Below are positions 20,768-29,003 of a stretch of DNA of 64,000 nt, one piece after another (position 1 is the first letter of the stretch; each line of letters begins with the position of its first letter). A program made the translations under genes and the position numbers. The DNA comes from an uncultured SAR86 cluster bacterium (GTDB lineage Bacteria > Pseudomonadota > Gammaproteobacteria > Magnimaribacterales > AG-339-G14): the NCBI GenBank assembly GCA_902616715.1, contig CACMTR010000002.1, positions 68,951-132,950 on the forward strand. The letters run 5' to 3'. Below the pieces are notes generated by a model, which worked only from the letters and a program-made list of their open reading frames with translations, was not told where the DNA came from and ran no database searches.

Positions 20768-21553
20768 TTAGTCATAGGGATTGATAATTTGAGGGCATTC
20801 ATTGGTTTCAATCTTTGTTTTTGAAATATTCATTGTACTATTTGGGAAAATCAAAGGAGTGTTCTTAGTTGTTATTTTTGTTTTAGGTGTGCATGGTTCA
20901 TTCAGAGCTTTAATGACAGCGCCTTGAATAAAACCTTGAACAATAGCCCCAAAAATATCGGTAATAAATGAGTCATCTTGCTTCTTTTTCGAAATAACTT
21001 TTGAACTTAGTTTATTCGATGGATTATCATCTCTAAGGGGAAACCCGTATTGCCATTGTCCGGAATATTTATCCCCATCCTTATACCACCTCGTGCCATA
21101 CCCATCAGGTAAATTATTTTTCCACTCCCCGTCATAAGTTCCCCAATGGTCAGTTAAAATACCCTCCCCATGTTTCTTGTCATTCTGCCAATCGCCAATA
21201 TATTTTTCTTTGGATGAAGTTGTTTCATAAATTCCTTTGCCGTGTCTTTTATTATTTTTCCAATCACCAATGTAAGAATGCCCAGCTGAGACAAAATGCC
21301 CTCTTCCATGAAAAGTTTTATTATCTTTCCATTCTCCTACATAAAACCCTTCTTTATCTAAGCTAACATATTTTTCACCATAACAATTTTTCCAAATTTT
21401 AATGTCTTCACATTTAGGCAGTAATGAAAATATACCTTCTTCAACTCCTTTGACCTTCAACATATTTTTTGGTTTAGGAGAGAATGCATAAGAATAAGAT
21501 TCAGCAAAAGAGCTCCCAACAAACAAAGCCAGAATTAGGAGTAGGTTTTTCAC
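20768..21553 (-). CDS. secreted MORN-repeat protein
   Basis: Signal peptide (SFA), then tandem Y.G.W.....HG.G repeats (YVGEWKD, YIGDWKN, YIGDWQN, YDGEWKN, YSGQWQY). Confidence 0.9.
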   Translation of the reverse strand: MKNLLLILALFVGSSFAESYSYAFSPKPKNMLKVKGVEEGIFSLLPKCEDIKIWKNCYGEKYVSLDKEGFYVGEWKDNKTFHGRGHFVSAGHSYIGDWKNNKRHGKGIYETTSSKEKYIGDWQNDKKHGEGILTDHWGTYDGEWKNNLPDGYGTRWYKDGDKYSGQWQYGFPLRDDNPSNKLSSKVISKKKQDDSFITDIFGAIVQGFIQGAVIKALNEPCTPKTKITTKNTPLIFPNSTMNISKTKIETNECPQIINPYD

Positions 21554-22656: not shown

Positions 22657-23295
22657 ATGTATAAAAATTTCTTTTTAATAAGCCTTATATTGTTGTCATC
22701 TAGCTTTGTTCACTCAGCTAGTGATGAAGTAGAGGTTAAAGCCGTCAAACGGGGCGATCCTATGGCAGGTTCTGAGCTGGTTGCTACTTGCACTGGTTGT
22801 CACGGTGCGGATGGAAATAGTGTTGTGGGTCAGTGGCCAACACTTGCTGGGCAAAGAGAAAGTTATACTTTAGCTCAGTTAATTCATGTGCAAAAAGGTG
22901 AACGCATGATCGAATCCATGATGGGCTTGCTTGATAATTATTCTGAAGAACAATTAAGAGATATTGCAGCATACTATGCCGCGCAAGACACCAAAGTTGG
23001 TCAAGCCGATAGTACTAACTTTGAATTGGGTCAAAGAATTTATCGAGCAGGAAATTTGTCAGGAGGAGTACCTGCATGCACAGGTTGTCATGGACCACAA
23101 GGAAAAGGAGTGGAGTCAGCTGGTTATCCTAAATTGAGCGGTCAGAAAGCTGAATACGTGGTCACTAGCTTAGTGGCATATAAAAATGGGGAGCGAGTGC
23201 ATAGTAGCAATGCAAAGATTATGCAAGGAATTGCTGTCCGGTTAACGACCGAAGAGATCAGAGCGGTGGCAAACTATGTTTCAGGATTGTATTAA
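22657..23295 (+). CDS. cytochrome c4 (diheme)
   Basis: Signal peptide and two CTGCH heme motifs; conserved position between engB and dsbA. Confidence 0.93.
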   Translation: MYKNFFLISLILLSSSFVHSASDEVEVKAVKRGDPMAGSELVATCTGCHGADGNSVVGQWPTLAGQRESYTLAQLIHVQKGERMIESMMGLLDNYSEEQLRDIAAYYAAQDTKVGQADSTNFELGQRIYRAGNLSGGVPACTGCHGPQGKGVESAGYPKLSGQKAEYVVTSLVAYKNGERVHSSNAKIMQGIAVRLTTEEIRAVANYVSGLY

Positions 23296-23899
23296 AACTC
23301 TTCTTTTAACTTTATTTTTAGGTTTTTTTAGTACTTTTACTTTTTCAAAAGACTATCAAGAAGGCAGACATTATCAGTTAATTGAGCCAATCCCCACAAG
23401 AAATCCGAAAAAAATAGAAGTTATTGAATTTTTTTGGTTTGGTTGTGGTCATTGTTTTAGCCTCGAGCAATTGATTGCAGACTGGAAAGGCGACATTGAT
23501 GAGAAAGTAGATTTTTTCAGATTGCCGGTAGTTTGGAATGCGCAAACCAAAACTCATGCTAAATTATTTTTTGCTACCGAAACTTTAAACGTGCCAGAAG
23601 CCATCGAAGGAATTTTTGGCGCGATTCACTTTAACCGCAAAATGATGCTCTCAGATAAAGAAGTAGTGCCTTTTTTTCAAGGCTACGGAGTGGAAGAAGA
23701 TCAATATCTTGCGGCTGTAAATTCTTTTGGTTTGAAAAATAATTTACGAAAAGCTGAGTTATTTGCCTTTAAATACGGTATAAAGGGCGTCCCTGCATTT
23801 ATTGTGAATGGAAAATACAAGGTTTCAGCCACAAGAGAACTTGGTACTGATGAACTTTTAAATGTTGTGGATTTTTTAATTAAAAAAGAACAAAGTTGA
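23276..23899 (+). CDS. dsbA: thiol:disulfide interchange protein DsbA
   Basis: EFFWFGCGHC active site and GVPAFIVNGKY cis-Pro loop. Confidence 0.93.
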   Translation: MFQDCIKTLLLTLFLGFFSTFTFSKDYQEGRHYQLIEPIPTRNPKKIEVIEFFWFGCGHCFSLEQLIADWKGDIDEKVDFFRLPVVWNAQTKTHAKLFFATETLNVPEAIEGIFGAIHFNRKMMLSDKEVVPFFQGYGVEEDQYLAAVNSFGLKNNLRKAELFAFKYGIKGVPAFIVNGKYKVSATRELGTDELLNVVDFLIKKEQS

Positions 23900-23900
23900 A

Positions 23901-24725
23901 ATGACTAATTACAGATCCAACTTATTTATACCAGGCCACACTCTAGATCGTCTTGAGCGTGCTCAAAACAGTAATGCCGATGCAATCATTGTTGATCTCG
24001 AAGACGGTTGTCCAGAAGCCGAAAAATTAGTGGCAAGAGAGACTCTGATCAGCTTGCTTAAAGAAAAAGCATTCACAAAACCACTATTCGTCCGAGTAAA
24101 TGATGCGATGGAAGCTCTTGGCAGAGCAGACATTGATTCTATCTCTCCTTATCAAGATCAAATAGAAGCAATTATTCTCCCTAAAACTCAAAGCTTTGAT
24201 TTTCTGGCAACGCTCGCCCCGATGATAGACTTTAAAAACAAATTAGTTCCCCTAATAGAAACATCAAGAGCCATTGAAACCGTTACTCAAATTGCTGCTT
24301 TTAAAGATGTTGTGGGTTTGTTTTTTGGTGCCGCAGATGCTTCAGCGAGTTTAGGATGCAAGTTAGCTTGGGAGCCATTATTGTATGCAAGACATAGAGT
24401 TGTTTTAGCCGCTTCAATGTTTAACCTTTTTACAATCGACGCACCATATTTTTACATAGATAAAATGGCTGGTTTGAAAGAAGAAGCCGAAGCGGTAAAA
24501 AATTTAGGGTTTACCGGTAAGGCCGCTATTCACCCCGACCAAATAGATTACATAAACGAGGCTTTTTCACCATCTCCTGAAGAAAAAGCCGAAGCGAAAA
24601 AAGTATTAGAGGAGTATCAAAAATCAGGCGGCGGGGCTATAAAAGTTGATGGGCAAATGATTGATGAGCCAATTGCAGAAGCTATGAGATTAAAAATTAC
24701 TCTTGGAGAAGAAGAGAAGGGTTAA
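23901..24725 (+). CDS. CitE/HpcH-family CoA-ester lyase (citramalyl-CoA lyase-like)
   Basis: RSNLFIPG, IVDLEDG, VRVN, LIET, FGAADAS, WEPLLYAR and GKAAIHPDQ. Confidence 0.88.
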   Translation: MTNYRSNLFIPGHTLDRLERAQNSNADAIIVDLEDGCPEAEKLVARETLISLLKEKAFTKPLFVRVNDAMEALGRADIDSISPYQDQIEAIILPKTQSFDFLATLAPMIDFKNKLVPLIETSRAIETVTQIAAFKDVVGLFFGAADASASLGCKLAWEPLLYARHRVVLAASMFNLFTIDAPYFYIDKMAGLKEEAEAVKNLGFTGKAAIHPDQIDYINEAFSPSPEEKAEAKKVLEEYQKSGGGAIKVDGQMIDEPIAEAMRLKITLGEEEKG

Positions 24726-24727
24726 AA

Positions 24728-25243
24728 ATGACTGGCTCAAAAGATCTTGGAGAGGGAAGATTCAGGGAATCTTACGGTCGATATTTTGAAGATTTTGAAG
24801 TTGGCCATATTTACGAACACAGACCTGGTCGAACCATAACTCAAGCCGACAATACTTGGTTCACTTTGCTGACAATGAATACCCACCCTTTGCATTTCGA
24901 CGAAGAGTATGGAAAAGCAACTGAGTTTGGCAAAACTTTAGTTAACAGCACATTTACTGTAGCCACCATGGTCGGTATGAGCGTTAGTGACGTTAGTCAG
25001 AAAGCAATCGCAAATCTAGGTTGGACAGATATCGTGCTGCCAAAACCTTTATTTGTTGGGGACACCCTGTATGCGGAATCAGAGGTTGTAGAGAAAAGAC
25101 TGTCCGAATCTAGAGAAAACTGCGGAATTGTTACGGTTAAAACAATTGGTAAAAACCAAAACGATGAAGTAGTAGCATCTTATTTAAGATCAGCCTTAAT
25201 CCCCACTCGCGGACATGCTGTTGACGATAAGATAAATTATTAA
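24728..25243 (+). CDS. MaoC-family (R)-specific enoyl-CoA hydratase (RipB/itaconyl-CoA hydratase-like)
   Basis: GRYFEDFEVG..YEHRPGRTIT..DN.WFTLLTMNTHPLHFD. Confidence 0.88.
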   Translation: MTGSKDLGEGRFRESYGRYFEDFEVGHIYEHRPGRTITQADNTWFTLLTMNTHPLHFDEEYGKATEFGKTLVNSTFTVATMVGMSVSDVSQKAIANLGWTDIVLPKPLFVGDTLYAESEVVEKRLSESRENCGIVTVKTIGKNQNDEVVASYLRSALIPTRGHAVDDKINY

Positions 25244-25246
25244 TTT

Positions 25247-26437
25247 ATGTCGGCACCACTAGAAAACATCAAAGTTCTAGATTTAACTCACATGTTGGCT
25301 GGACCTTATGCCAGCATGCTAATTGCAGATCTTGGCGCTGAGGTTGTAAAAGTTGAACCACCAGGCAAAGGCGAAATCACTAGAGCCCTCTATAAAGATC
25401 ACCCTGATTATTCCCTTGATGGTGTAAGTCCTTATCATATTACTTTGGCGAGAAATAAAAAAAGCCTTACTTTGGATTTGAAACAAGAAAAGGGCAAACA
25501 ATTATTTTATGAGCTCGTAAAAAAATTTGATGTCGTTTTGGATAACTTCAGTTCTGGAGTCACAGAAAGATTAGGAATAGATTTTCCTACTTTGAAAAAA
25601 TACAATCCAAAAATTATTACTTGTTCTATTAGTGGTTTTGGGAAAGGTGAGGCAGATAGACCTGCTTATGATCAAATCCTTCAGGCTTATGGCGGCGGGA
25701 TGTCTATTACCGGAGAGGACGAAAATCATCCAGTTCGAGCTGGTATTCCCATCGCCGATTTATCATCGGGCATGTTCAGTATTATTGGAATCCTTAGTGC
25801 TTTGCAAAAAAGAGATAAAGACGGTGTTGGCGATCATGTTGATATTTCAATGTTAGATTGCCAAGTGAGCCTTCTAACCTATATGGCCACAATGAATACA
25901 ATTTCAGGAATAGAACCTAAACCGATAGGAAACCAACATTTCCTTCACGTTCCCTATAATTCCTATAAAACTGCTGATGGATTTATTATTATTTCGGTGG
26001 TGCATGAAGATTTTTGGCCTAATTTATTAGAGGCCCTAGATCTAGAGGAATTTCGCGGCGAGGAATATAAAACTGTTCAAGGACGTCTTGCTGATAGAAA
26101 AAATATAGACAAAGTTATCTCTGAAAAATTAGAACATAAACCAAGCTCTCACTGGCTCGACTTACTAGCAAAACATCGTGTTCCTTCTGGACCTATTAAT
26201 TCAGTGAGGGATGCTTTAGAAGATCCGCTTGTAAAGAAAAGAAATATGATTGTCGACTTGGAACAACCATCTGGCTCAACAGCGAAAATGCCTGGTAACC
26301 CAATTAAACTTGAGAGTTATGAAGAGAATTATTCTCCGGCGCCTGAGTTGGGCGAACATACAGCGGAAGTATTAGAAAAATATCTTAAAATTAGCTCTGA
26401 GGAACTTGATTCTTTAAAATCAGATAAGATTATTTAA
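25247..26437 (+). CDS. family III (CaiB/BaiF) CoA-transferase
   Basis: KVLDLTHMLAGPY, LGAEVVKVEPP, RNKKSL.LDLK, CSISGFG and PIADL. Confidence 0.93.
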   Translation: MSAPLENIKVLDLTHMLAGPYASMLIADLGAEVVKVEPPGKGEITRALYKDHPDYSLDGVSPYHITLARNKKSLTLDLKQEKGKQLFYELVKKFDVVLDNFSSGVTERLGIDFPTLKKYNPKIITCSISGFGKGEADRPAYDQILQAYGGGMSITGEDENHPVRAGIPIADLSSGMFSIIGILSALQKRDKDGVGDHVDISMLDCQVSLLTYMATMNTISGIEPKPIGNQHFLHVPYNSYKTADGFIIISVVHEDFWPNLLEALDLEEFRGEEYKTVQGRLADRKNIDKVISEKLEHKPSSHWLDLLAKHRVPSGPINSVRDALEDPLVKKRNMIVDLEQPSGSTAKMPGNPIKLESYEENYSPAPELGEHTAEVLEKYLKISSEELDSLKSDKII

Positions 26438-26526: not shown

Positions 26527-27600
26527 ATGAGTGAACAAATGAATGTAGATCACGAAAAGGTTATGGCGCTTTTTGGAAACGTCTTTAATGATGTTGCAGG
26601 CGCAGTTGCCATAATGATGTCTTATATTGGTGATCAGACTGGGGTATACCAAGCAATGGATAAGCTTGGCCCCGCAAAAGCTTCGGCTATTGCCAAAGAA
26701 GCTAAAGTAGATGAGCGCTATCTTCAAGAATGGCTAGCTTCAAATGCTGCGAGAGGTTACGTAACTTTTGATCCAGAAACCGAAGAATTCAGTTTAACTC
26801 CTGAGCAGGCATGTGTTTTTGCCCGTGAAAGCGAACCTACTTGTATTCAAGGTTTAATCCAAGGAGTTGTAGGACAATTCGCTAAAGAAGACGTCGCACT
26901 TGATGTATTTAAAACGGGTCGGGGTCGTCCATGGGGTGAACATCATGATTGTTGCTTTTGTGGAACTGAGAGATTTTTCAGACCAGCATATGCTGGACAT
27001 TTATTAGACGAATGGATTCCTGCGTTAGAAGGTGTTGAAGAAAAATTAAAAATGGGAGCAAAAATTGCTGATATTGGTTGCGGCCTTGGAACCTCTTCTA
27101 TATTGATGGCAGAACAATATCCTAATTCAACAATTCATGCGTTTGATTTTCATGGCCCATCGATAGAAGAAGCAAAAAAAAGAGCTGAAGAAAAAGGATT
27201 ATCAAACTTGGAGTTTTTTGTTTCCGATGCTGCGGCCATACCAAAAAATGATTACGACTTGGCATGTATTTTTGATGCTTGGCATGACATGGGTGATCCA
27301 GTAGGAATTGCTTCCAGCATCAAGAACACCCTAGCAAAGGACGGAACATTTATGGTGGTCGAACCTATGGCACTAGATGGGTTAGCGAATAATATTGCTA
27401 ATAATCCAGCTTCAGGAATGATGTATGGATTTGGAACATTAGTCTGTGTGCCAGCTTCGAAAGCACAACCTGTAGGTTTAGGTTTAGGACCTCAAGCGGG
27501 ACCAAATAAACTTATGGAACTTCTTGGCGAAGCAGGTTTTGGAAGGGTAGGTTTAGCTGCAAGTACGACCAATAACTTAGTTTTACAAGCTCGCGCTTGA
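26527..27600 (+). CDS. class I SAM-dependent methyltransferase with N-terminal wHTH
   Basis: DERYLQEWL N-terminal domain, ADIGCGLG motif I and FDAWHDMGDP. Confidence 0.9.
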   Translation: MSEQMNVDHEKVMALFGNVFNDVAGAVAIMMSYIGDQTGVYQAMDKLGPAKASAIAKEAKVDERYLQEWLASNAARGYVTFDPETEEFSLTPEQACVFARESEPTCIQGLIQGVVGQFAKEDVALDVFKTGRGRPWGEHHDCCFCGTERFFRPAYAGHLLDEWIPALEGVEEKLKMGAKIADIGCGLGTSSILMAEQYPNSTIHAFDFHGPSIEEAKKRAEEKGLSNLEFFVSDAAAIPKNDYDLACIFDAWHDMGDPVGIASSIKNTLAKDGTFMVVEPMALDGLANNIANNPASGMMYGFGTLVCVPASKAQPVGLGLGPQAGPNKLMELLGEAGFGRVGLAASTTNNLVLQARA

Positions 27601-27698
27601 AATTAAAAATAGTTTTGCATAACTAAATATCCTTTGTATCTAAGCCATCCGAAAAGTTTTTATTTCAGATGGTTTTAGATATACTCGTTTCACAATTT

Positions 27699-28310
27699 AT
27701 GACGTACTTTAAATATTTTTCGATTTTATTTTTCTTTAGTTTGGGAATTTTTTCCAATAATATCGATATGAGAGACGAAGCCATTGAAGCGAGAATAACG
27801 CCATTAGGCAATGCTTGCATGCAAGGCGATGATTGTGGAATTTCGACCTCAGGTCCTGGATATAAAGTTTCTCTAATTAAGACATCTTCCCCTTCAGAGC
27901 CCGCCGCTAGTGGATCTGAAAATGAGCACATTGTTAAAATGTTAAATGCCGGAGCCGATGGAGTCATGGTCTTTGAACCAGCGGCACTTAAAATCAAAAA
28001 AGGCGATACTGTCGTCTTTAAATCAGTTGATCCTGGTCATAATACAGTCTCAGCGCCAAACCTGATTCCTTCTGGTGCGACACCTTGGGAAAGTATTCAA
28101 GGTCAAGACTTTTCTATTACCTTTGATACCGAAGGTGTGTACGTTTACCAATGCACTCCGCATTTAGTAATGGCAATGATCGGCTTAATTCAAGTGGGCG
28201 AGGCGACGAATCTTTCGGAAATCAAGTCTAACTTAGGCCCTTTTCAAGGTTTAATAGCCTTAAATCAAGATAGATTAGATAAATACTTTTCGCAATTAGA
28301 GAGTTTATAA
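27699..28310 (+). CDS. pseudoazurin (type 1 blue copper protein) with a cytochrome c5-like N-terminal extension
   Basis: HIVKMLN...MVFEPA...GDTVVF...GHN...YQCTPHLVMAM supplies the His/Cys/His/Met ligands; N-terminal AIEARITPLGNACMQGDDC. Start is 27699 or 27669. Confidence 0.88.
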   Translation: MTYFKYFSILFFFSLGIFSNNIDMRDEAIEARITPLGNACMQGDDCGISTSGPGYKVSLIKTSSPSEPAASGSENEHIVKMLNAGADGVMVFEPAALKIKKGDTVVFKSVDPGHNTVSAPNLIPSGATPWESIQGQDFSITFDTEGVYVYQCTPHLVMAMIGLIQVGEATNLSEIKSNLGPFQGLIALNQDRLDKYFSQLESL

Positions 28311-29003
28311 TTCTATAAATTCAGATTCTAATTCCTTCCAACTTTTAAGTTCAGGTACCTTCAACCGATCCTTGTGTTCCCAATCTTTCTTTAACGCATT
28401 CATCCACATGGCTTGAAAGCCAGCGCTTAACGCACCTTCAACATCATTTACAGGATGATCACCGATATGACAAATTTCTTCTGGAGCTACTCCAGCTAAT
28501 TTAGCGGCTTCGTCAAAAATTTTCTTACCTGGCTTACTTTCATTCACCATCTCCGCATTTACATAAAAATCAAATAAGTGATCTATCTTTAAGGTTTTGA
28601 TGTCAGCATTACCGTTTGTAATAACACCTAAGATATATTTATTTTTTAAAGCCTCTAAAGTTTCAAGAACATCATCAAAGTAAACAACCTTATGTCTTTC
28701 ATCTAGAAAGATTTTGAAAGATTCTTTTGATAAAGATTTAGCTTCTTCAGAGGCAACTCTATTTTCAACTAGCAATTCGTAGATAACTTTTTGCCTCAAT
28801 TCGGAAAGACGGTTTGCAAGTCCAGGTTCTTGGCTTACTAACTCTTTCCATTTTTTTCTTTCTTCCGAAGAAAATAAAATTCCCTGCATCTGTGGATGTT
28901 TTTCAATCAAATAATCATTTGAGCTCTTATGAGCATGCATGATCACGTCAAAAAGTGGCCATAGAGTATCATCCAAATCAAAGGTTATAGCTTTTACTTT
29001 CAT
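28305..29003 (-). CDS. HAD-superfamily hydrolase (YigB-like)
   Basis: FDLDDTLW, ITNGN, KP and HIGDH...DV; located downstream of xerC. Confidence 0.92.
   Translation of the reverse strand: MKVKAITFDLDDTLWPLFDVIMHAHKSSNDYLIEKHPQMQGILFSSEERKKWKELVSQEPGLANRLSELRQKVIYELLVENRVASEEAKSLSKESFKIFLDERHKVVYFDDVLETLEALKNKYILGVITNGNADIKTLKIDHLFDFYVNAEMVNESKPGKKIFDEAAKLAGVAPEEICHIGDHPVNDVEGALSAGFQAMWMNALKKDWEHKDRLKVPELKSWKELESEFIEL

Follow-up and report, generated by a model that had tools for sequence, protein, structure and literature searches.

A candidate copper electron carrier with a cytochrome c5-type tail in the SAR86 cluster

Why does a pseudoazurin gene of a SAR86 cluster bacterium encode, between its signal peptide and its copper domain, a segment that looks like the beginning of a cytochrome c5, and what might such a protein do? 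We addressed this question for the gene at 27699..28310 (+) of a 64,000-nucleotide stretch of DNA, here called the window, from an uncultured SAR86 cluster bacterium (assembly GCA_902616715.1, contig CACMTR010000002.1, positions 68,951 to 132,950 of the forward strand). An earlier note on this DNA had read the product as a signal peptide, a c5-like segment, a Ser/Pro-rich linker and a full pseudoazurin domain with no CxxCH, a layout that the translation, PF00127 and TIGR02375 confirm. Our analysis gives good support to a periplasmic carrier that would be put together from two unrelated parts, a cytochrome c5 tail with a linker and a pseudoazurin head in place of the haem head. No published description of a tail-pseudoazurin fusion was found in the literature covered, which leaves aside subscription journals, and the fusion is apparently common but undescribed.

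A pseudoazurin head behind a cytochrome c5-type tail

The enclosing open reading frame (ORF) spans 27669..28310 (+) and encodes 213 aa from an in-frame ATG at 27669. The ATG at 27699, which gives 203 aa plus the stop, matches the starts of the homologues in the alignment, and translation may begin at either codon. Numbered from 27699, residues 1-22 (27699..27764, +) form a hydrophobic, signal-peptide-like N-terminus; the hydrophobic N-termini of homologues align with these residues and end just before DMRE, and the signal is probably cleaved after residue 22. The putative docking tail of c5 type follows (residues 23-47, DMRDEAIEARITPLGNACMQGDDCG; 27765..27839, +), 25 residues that hold a Cys-x5-Cys pair, C40 and C46, and that are recognised by a match in the Protein Data Bank (PDB), by a hidden Markov model (HMM) and by a tail-only profile, A7. 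Behind it lies a linker of 31 residues (residues 48-78; 27840..27932, +), 58% of which are Ser, Pro, Gly, Thr or Ala and which opens with a lineage-specific conserved SGPGYKV; its composition and the AlphaFold2 confidence score (pLDDT) predict it to be flexible. Residues 79-203 (27933..28307, +) make up the pseudoazurin, or type 1 copper, head.

The head is identified by two family models, by solved pseudoazurins and by an AlphaFold2 model. NCBIfam TIGR02375 'pseudoazurin' scores 124.7 bits over residues 81-200, against a cut-off of 109.85, and PF00127 (residues 80-166, E 1.9e-17) is the sole Pfam family at E<=10. The copper site is intact: H114 (28038-28040, +), C152 (28152-28154, +), H155 (28161-28163, +) and M160 (28176-28178, +), which after the solved pseudoazurins we take to be the copper ligands, show the spacing C-x2-H-x4-M and are invariant in 20 of 20 aligned homologues. 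Equally invariant in all 20 are M24, R25, A28, I29, R32, C40 and G47 of the tail, together with G52-V57, and conservation of the tail equals that of the copper site. Only three Cys, C40, C46 and C152, are present in the protein. It contains no CxxCH and is not among the nine CxxCH ORFs found in six frames of the genome, and no cytochrome family, PF13442 included, matches it in Pfam at E<=10; lacking both CxxCH and a cytochrome c fold family, it is judged not to be a cytochrome c5.

Pseudoazurins normally begin right after the signal peptide, as the earlier note had stated, and both the solved chains and plain homologues agree. In the solved proteins residue 2-3 aligns to profile position 81-82 (best E 1e-37), and the roughly 57 residues between signal peptide and head are therefore extra. 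Compared with classical pseudoazurin (TIGR02375; PDB 1BQK, 1ADW, 1PAZ), the fusion is alike in its score above the cut-off, its four ligands with their C-x2-H-x4-M and its C-terminal helical extension, whereas it differs in carrying 57 additional residues of apparent cytochrome c5 origin and in a genome in which no nitrite reductase was found. In the AlphaFold2 model, built from a 20-sequence alignment, the block-mean pLDDT of the head is mostly 73-94, with one block at 68; strands are predicted between residues 76 and 166 and helices at 172-178 and 180-202. The pLDDT falls below 50 for residues 18-23 and 33-72, with tail and linker disordered on their own, and the model thus shows a compact, folded head attached to a highly flexible lead. 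As a separate observation, one metagenomic homologue (P0010) follows one genus type in its tail and first half and the type of the window's genus in its C-terminal third, and is either a recombinant or an assembly chimera.

The resemblance to cytochrome c5, which the earlier note had drawn from motif memory, is upheld by searches with the tail region. P0122, the 40 residues around the tail, was searched alone against 177,635 distinct PDB sequences and has a single match at E<=10, residues 21-44 of 8smr_L, 'Cytochrome C5' (E 0.037). A mixed profile of two fusion tails and three cytochrome tails returns 8smr_L again, now at E 2.9e-10. Against 301 gammaproteobacterial genomes, the best matches of P0122 outside the genus (E 2.3e-4 and 0.0072, and a third, weaker one at E 0.27) are small CxxCH proteins in which the matching stretch immediately follows the signal peptide and precedes an Ala-rich linker and a c5-type haem domain. 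The mixed profile, A2, matches 24 of 300 genomes at E<=0.01; 18 of its 19 new matches are mono- or dihaem c-type cytochromes with the tail layout and the other is a junk frame. With a profile made from fusions only, A1, seven sister-genus genomes match (E 2.7e-13 to 8.4e-13), and the matching proteins at loci L071 and L073 are cytochromes c5 that carry the same lineage-specific tail, ADMREDAILKRIQHLGSVCTSADCGLKTSGPGWKV..., on a haem head.

The search also works from the cytochrome side. When cytochrome c5 proteins of the order are aligned to 8smr_L, the match takes in the tail and almost the entire protein (E 5.7e-29 and 3.3e-18). An HMM of 20 cytochrome-only tails, run unfiltered over all 14,647 ORFs of 30 aa or more in the six frames of the window's genome, has the fusion as its sole significant ORF (E 2.4e-5; next best 5.4), in a test that is partly circular since the 20 tails had been gathered with a profile containing the query; the comparison of P0122 with the PDB and the A1 search stand outside that circularity. 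The tail-only profile A7 has a single match in the genome, C2:96718-96795, at E 5.0e-14. Taken together, these matches show that the extra segment shares its ancestry with the tail at the start of cytochrome c5.

One tail with three alternative heads

We surveyed 101 genomes of the same order, each at least 85% complete, with four profiles. Genomes of the order measure 0.7-1.8 Mb; that of the window has 1.16 Mb, 33% G+C and a completeness of 85.7%. None of the conclusions depends on G141, a genome marked as unpublished. Scored by A1 at E<=1e-20, the full-length fusion is present in 50 of the 101, a tally that, like the others of this survey, comes from related genomes and stands for a handful of evolutionary events. 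The alignment begins at or before column 19 in 49 of them and at column 58 in one (G368). A further 43 A1 matches start only at columns 73-82 and are plain, tail-less pseudoazurins. The haem form was scored by a tail-plus-c5 profile, A5 (E<=1e-12), which matches across tail and head in 40 genomes. In 15 genomes A5 matches a head only, and by coordinates each of these lies directly downstream of a fusion on the same strand; at L064-L066, L068-L070, L076 and L093 the head-only c5 stands as a gene of its own that begins with a signal peptide. Among these downstream genes, the one in genus g273 (L068, L070, L076) starts …LLFVSCSEEN, possibly a lipobox, and its equivalent in genus g271 has an ordinary signal peptide.

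A third head emerged from the nine genomes in which A5 matches the tail end only. These nine and G304 (L095, read by eye) have the same family-specific tail on a different haem head, FNGKKYDESVIERIHLNVNICVEGQECG..., whose best PDB relatives are c554, c552 and the C-terminal half of c4 (E 4.9e-13, 1e-11 and 3.5e-8), not c5. This form was seen at L099:2731-3126 (G324), L098 and L095 (G304), in genera g279 and g277, in the slot next to c4 and dsbA, and a c552/c554-like head on a c5-type tail is, as far as we found, undescribed. The ten genomes with it all have a plain pseudoazurin as well.

The three head classes do not overlap. They occupy 50, 40 and 10 genomes, 100 together, and no genome of the 101 has two; no carrier of any class was found in G383, a fragmented genome of 170 contigs. 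At E<=0.001 the tail-only profile A7, 26 columns built from all three classes, recognises 85 of the 101 genomes, with exactly one match in each. A genome of the order thus has a single carrier with the tail, and the head found on it at this locus is of one of three kinds. Tails track lineage rather than head: the c5 of one genus has FNGKKYDESVIERIHLQVNVCLEGQQCGE and the fusion of its sister genus has FNGKKYDEAVIERLALTVNLCLEGQDCGSS. Fusion and haem form occur side by side within six genera, at 6:3 in g271, 3:2 in g278, 2:9 in g279, 2:2 in g282, 4:5 in g284 and 1:1 in g286, and the tail behaves as an exchangeable module.

The shared locus is seen in gene order. The arrangement c4-dsbA-carrier was seen with the fusion at L093, L096, L097 and L100, with c5 at L087 and L088, and with the c552-like form at L095, L098 and L099. 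In the window, dsbA (23276..23899, +), a gene for a DsbA-like thiol:disulfide oxidoreductase that NCBIfam DsbA models match at E 2.8e-18, below cut-off, is separated from the fusion by 3.7 kb and four other genes, which are RipC-like, RipB-like, a CoA-transferase and a methyltransferase. The window's family has about 4-6 kb of other genes between dsbA and the carrier, in fusion and c5 genomes alike.

Does the copper head then replace the haem head, as the earlier note had proposed with the docking segment kept? The idea stands in that the heads alternate at one slot and in that the tail is a documented docking segment in Pseudomonas aeruginosa (PMC10556555). It fails as a simple one-for-one exchange, as a c5 without a tail persists in 15 of the 50 genomes with the fusion and a third head exists. 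The fusion is also far from rare, being found in half of the survey (50/101) and in several other marine gammaproteobacterial groups. A fusion both common and independent of c5 loss was to have counted against the swap: common it is, and it is strictly exclusive with tail-bearing c5, no genome of the 101 having both. Looked for at the note's suggestion, a canonical c5 is absent from the window's genus: all four of its genomes and all six of the sister genus have the fusion and no c5-type gene. Over the survey, any c5-type gene is missing from 35 of the 50 genomes that have the fusion.

Known carrier pairs offer a partial parallel. Plastocyanin and cytochrome c6, or pseudoazurin and cytochrome c550, do the same job with copper or haem and are encoded by separate genes that are regulated within one cell. 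The carriers described here likewise alternate between copper and haem; unlike plastocyanin and c6, their heads sit on a common tail at a single chromosomal slot, and which head is used is set genome by genome.

Presumed partners and a proposed path of electrons

What could the tail hold on to? The report on the P. aeruginosa bc1-c4-c5-cbb3 supercomplex, solved by cryo-electron microscopy (8SMR/8SNH; Di Trani et al. 2023, PMC10556555), describes the 16 N-terminal residues of c5 as touching both cytochrome c4 and cytochrome c1. The other 102 residues, linker and haem head, are described there as mobile, with sub-classes above c4 or beside CcoP, and the authors conclude that the c5 head shuttles electrons as the tail remains anchored. 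In the window, the gene for a dihaem cytochrome c4 (22657..23295, +; two CxxCH, PF00034 twice) encodes the presumed docking partner and electron donor. Its best PDB match is P. aeruginosa c4 6q2u, a protein also present in 8SMR/8SNH (E 1.1e-50, residues 33-212 against 2-181). Cytochrome c1 is encoded in a petABC operon on another contig (L101), where the bc1 operon was read, and its only PDB match at E<=1e-10 is 8smr_J (E 5.4e-53). By these matches, the window's genome holds orthologues of both proteins that clamp the tail.

The c1 proteins themselves vary in length. That of the window's genome (G000; L101:3306-3965) is short, at 219 aa, and frames in its family run to about 220-282 aa, the longer ones with an upstream frame. 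In families f233 and f234 (compared with L111-L125), c1 frames of 265-313 aa give a two-piece match around residue 161, which suggests an insert of a few tens of residues. This insert may be a counterpart of the beta-hairpin with which P. aeruginosa c1 touches cbb3, as described in PMC10556555.

Set beside P. aeruginosa c5, the fusion has the same succession of signal peptide, tail of about 25 residues with [D/E]xAIxxR[I/L]xP[V/L]GxxCxxGxxC, linker and redox head, in a genome that likewise has c4 and c1. It is unlike c5 in its head, a cupredoxin with neither CxxCH nor PF13442, and in its Ser/Pro-rich linker with SGPGYKV, which is absent from the Pseudomonas protein. The oxidase differs too, being caa3-type, not cbb3. 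The genome has a single haem-copper oxidase subunit I (COX1), which adjoins a CoxB with a C-terminal CxxCH domain (PF13442), and the oxidase is accordingly classed as caa3-type; cbb3 (FixO) was not found in the window's genome, and neither FixO nor NirK was found in three genomes of the genus that are 97, 93 and 88% complete. Since the c-type cytochromes findable in the window's genome are c1, c4 and the CoxB domain only, the fusion is the sole candidate for a mobile carrier from bc1-c4 to the oxidase in the genus.

We consider it likely that the fusion works as a tethered copper shuttle, in which a c5 tail and linker with a pseudoazurin head connect bc1-c4 to the oxidase. The tail (residues 23-47) would plug into the bacterium's bc1-c4 assembly, perhaps with C40 and C46 joined in a disulfide, and the linker of about 30 residues would let the copper head move. 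Once loaded with copper, the head would receive electrons from c4 (or c1) and would deliver them to the cytochrome c domain of the caa3-type oxidase. These abundant small marine bacteria thus appear to run the last leg of respiration with a tethered copper carrier instead of a haem one. Such a shuttle would extend to a copper carrier the 2023 structural finding of a haem carrier held by its tail on bc1-c4, and for marine gammaproteobacteria with small genomes, which are difficult to cultivate, it provides a concrete model of respiration that can be tested.

A tail that binds c4 should go with c4, and this can be seen in the survey. We scored c4 by profile A3 (E<=1e-20) and cross-tabulated it with the A7 tail in the same 101 genomes: both are present in 83 and neither in 15, with c4 alone in one and the tail alone in two, a table that amounts to two evolutionary contrasts rather than 101 data points. 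The genome with c4 alone is the fragmented G383, and those with the tail alone, G327 and G335, have congeners with c4. The 15 without both belong to two separate lineages, as 12 of the 15 genomes of g2 and all three of g280, and within g2 the three c4-bearing genomes are the three with a canonical tail. At the g280 loci L227 and L228 the order is polA-engB-dsbA-fusion, with the c4 gene absent. Carriers of g280 and of the c4-less g2 genomes retain an N-terminal extension that has diverged beyond the profile. The co-occurrence of tail and c4 fits, indirectly, what a c4-binding tail would predict.

Several points weigh against the tethered shuttle. The N-terminal extension persists without c4 (3 of 3 genomes in g280, 12 of 15 in g2); c4 is therefore not the sole anchor, and c1 or something else must matter for the extension too. 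As a single sequence, P0122 matches the solved c5 tail marginally (17.4 bits at its E of 0.037), and the circular element of the cytochrome-tail HMM test has to be borne in mind, as has the kinship behind the survey tallies. The c5-type chains solved in the PDB comprise the head only, at 76-83 residues, and in some settings tails may be removed. The acceptor side is unlike the solved system, the oxidase being caa3-type with cbb3 not found, and it was read in a genome of limited completeness (85.7%). The 15 fusion genomes with an adjacent tail-less c5 indicate that copper does not always replace haem. Finally, docking of the tail is argued from homology, gene content and co-occurrence.

The same data bear on whether the N-terminal segment docks at all. 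The protein might be an ordinary soluble pseudoazurin whose segment has no particular docking partner and acts as a spacer or pro-piece, perhaps cut off after export, as the predicted disorder of tail and linker, the head-only length of solved c5-type chains and the frequency of plain tail-less pseudoazurins in the order (43 matches) would allow. We regard this as unlikely: the segment is conserved no less strongly than the copper site, occurs once only in each of the 85 genomes that A7 recognises, is retained on three different heads at one locus and diverges in the two lineages without c4, and a homologue of the tail is bound in 8SMR (PMC10556555).

A copper head could also serve an enzyme other than the terminal oxidase. 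In denitrifiers, pseudoazurin donates to such enzymes as copper nitrite reductase, N2O reductase or cytochrome c peroxidase, a role established in Achromobacter and Paracoccus. For the fusion we hold this to be very improbable. NirK (TIGR02376) and cytochrome c peroxidase (PF03150) were not found in the window's genome, which is 85.7% complete, nor, as said, was NirK in three genomes of the genus, and no search was made for N2O reductase. The gene moreover occupies the c5 slot of the respiratory c4 cluster. Public annotation names these proteins simply 'pseudoazurin', a label that points to denitrification, although the genomes seem to lack that pathway.

The tethered shuttle resembles other anchored carriers. 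Lipid-anchored cupredoxins are tethered carriers. Cytochrome cy of Rhodobacter (PMC7876108) is a membrane-tethered one. In these, as in the fusion, an anchor and a flexible linker would keep the redox head near its partners. Their anchor is a transmembrane (TM) helix or a lipid, whereas that of the fusion is a short peptide which, by homology, would bind a protein socket. Both kinds of anchor are combined in some homologues, lipobox and tail in Porticoccaceae records and TM helix and tail in L188 and P0140.

Spread, origin and surroundings of the fusion

How far does the fusion reach beyond the order? A word-indexed protein search returned 1,459 clusters at E<=0.001, and most of the 120 clusters listed are about 205 aa long, with a query coverage of 88-100% that is in most cases 95-99%. 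When each species was represented by one genome, a scan gave 79 loci. The tail-linker-pseudoazurin layout is also present in records titled Porticoccaceae, Porticoccus, SAR92 cluster, HTCC2207, OM182 clade, K189A clade, Woeseiaceae and Cellvibrionales, and a Methylophaga record has the fusion with a membrane anchor. Records of Marinobacter, Microbulbifer, Alcanivorax and others have a plain pseudoazurin directly after the signal peptide. Many Porticoccaceae fusions have a lipobox (…AGCG) ahead of a c5-like VAERIAPVG. This lipoprotein-like …AGCG signal was read in the Porticoccaceae/SAR92-type fusions L139, L143-L145, L151, L154-L156, L159, L160, L163, L165 and others, which may be anchored by lipid and tail both.

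In a library clustered at 50% identity, 956 clusters match at E<=1e-10. The best 150 of these include 97 proteins that are single-domain, complete at the N-terminus and at most 280 aa long; 25 of the 97 have at least 45 residues before the domain, and 8 of these 25 match the cytochrome-only tail HMM at E<0.01. Four others among the best 150 are very large, P0124 (1452 aa), P0127 (1353 aa), P0134 (3670 aa) and P0145 (2938 aa), with 8-12 pseudoazurin-like stretches each.

Iron economy is a possible selective reason for the copper head, one that would ride on the tethered shuttle rather than offer another mechanism: each carrier would save one haem iron in iron-poor surface seawater. We hold it as a tentative explanation that falls short of an even chance. 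The fusion appears under record titles of the oligotrophic marine groups Porticoccaceae/SAR92/HTCC2207, OM182 and K189A, most fusion genomes (35 of 50) do without any c5-type gene, and heads switch inside six genera, as expected under local selection. The saving would nonetheless be small, because c4, c1 and the oxidase still require haem; 15 fusion genomes retain a c5 head gene, and the ten genomes with the c552/c554-like head keep a plain pseudoazurin alongside their haem-headed carrier.

A wider and more speculative proposal, to which we give somewhat less credence, is that the c5 tail acts as a portable plug for a single bc1-c4 socket, with heads exchanged among marine gammaproteobacteria, one per genome, and with the copper form, dominant in several of the most abundant oligotrophic lineages, as an adaptation to iron scarcity. 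If this were true, part of ocean respiration would depend on copper supply. The type of head on the one tail (copper, c5 or c552-like) is a genomic marker that could be mapped against iron and copper in the ocean.

To follow the origin of the fusion we built a tree of 82 pseudoazurin heads, 61 from fusions and 21 plain, labelled from their junction sequences and not from the tree. Left out were L187, L188 and L189 for their length, frames with X, N-truncated frames, identical duplicates and eight Marinobacter-type plain rows that fail the copper-site pattern (L195-L199, L201, L203, L204). The tree requires two changes of state. It has 58 fusions on one side of a branch, and the three rows of the window's genus (window 27933-28307, L002, L132) stand apart on a long branch of 1.15 changes per column, which reflects either fast evolution or a second replacement of the head. 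None of 200 bootstrap trees unites all fusions, and the approximately unbiased (AU) test does not reject a single clade (p 0.45 with the quick tree, 0.32 with the careful tree). A junction KVxLSEGxEHxVKMLN is common to fusions across orders and points to common descent of the fusion, for which a single origin is possible. Birth of the fusion within the window's genus is ruled out by its presence in f1, f233 and f234, three of the four families, and in other orders. In a MAFFT alignment of the DNA of one tail-c5 locus with two fusion-plus-c5 loci of the same genus, the 5' part is misplaced; the shared c5 head shows many differences, which argues that there was no recent clean insertion or deletion.

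Near-identical sequence is represented in seawater RNA. In 20 seawater RNA libraries, from 20 study codes, 61-84% of the sampled words of 27600-28400 are present. The coding sequence is covered by contigs from all four of the runs that were aligned, and these differ from it at few positions, one that spans 27703-28436 at two. RNA libraries can contain DNA, and such contigs give neither levels nor ends; gaps between contigs near 27650-27700 in several runs are for this reason not readable as a transcript start. A scan of 27400-28600 for promoters and terminators found two promoter-like sites, against 3.2 expected, and no terminator.

Two features of the neighbourhood are recorded for themselves. 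Three genes at 23901-26437, among those that lie between dsbA and the fusion, encode a RipC-like lyase (217.6 bits), a RipB-like hydratase (215 bits) and a family III CoA-transferase; they resemble an itaconate-degradation set, and all score below curated cut-offs. Between polA and engB, an ORF of 261 aa at 20768-21553 (-) has a signal-like start followed by YxGxWxxxxxHGxG repeats, which we take to be MORN-like.

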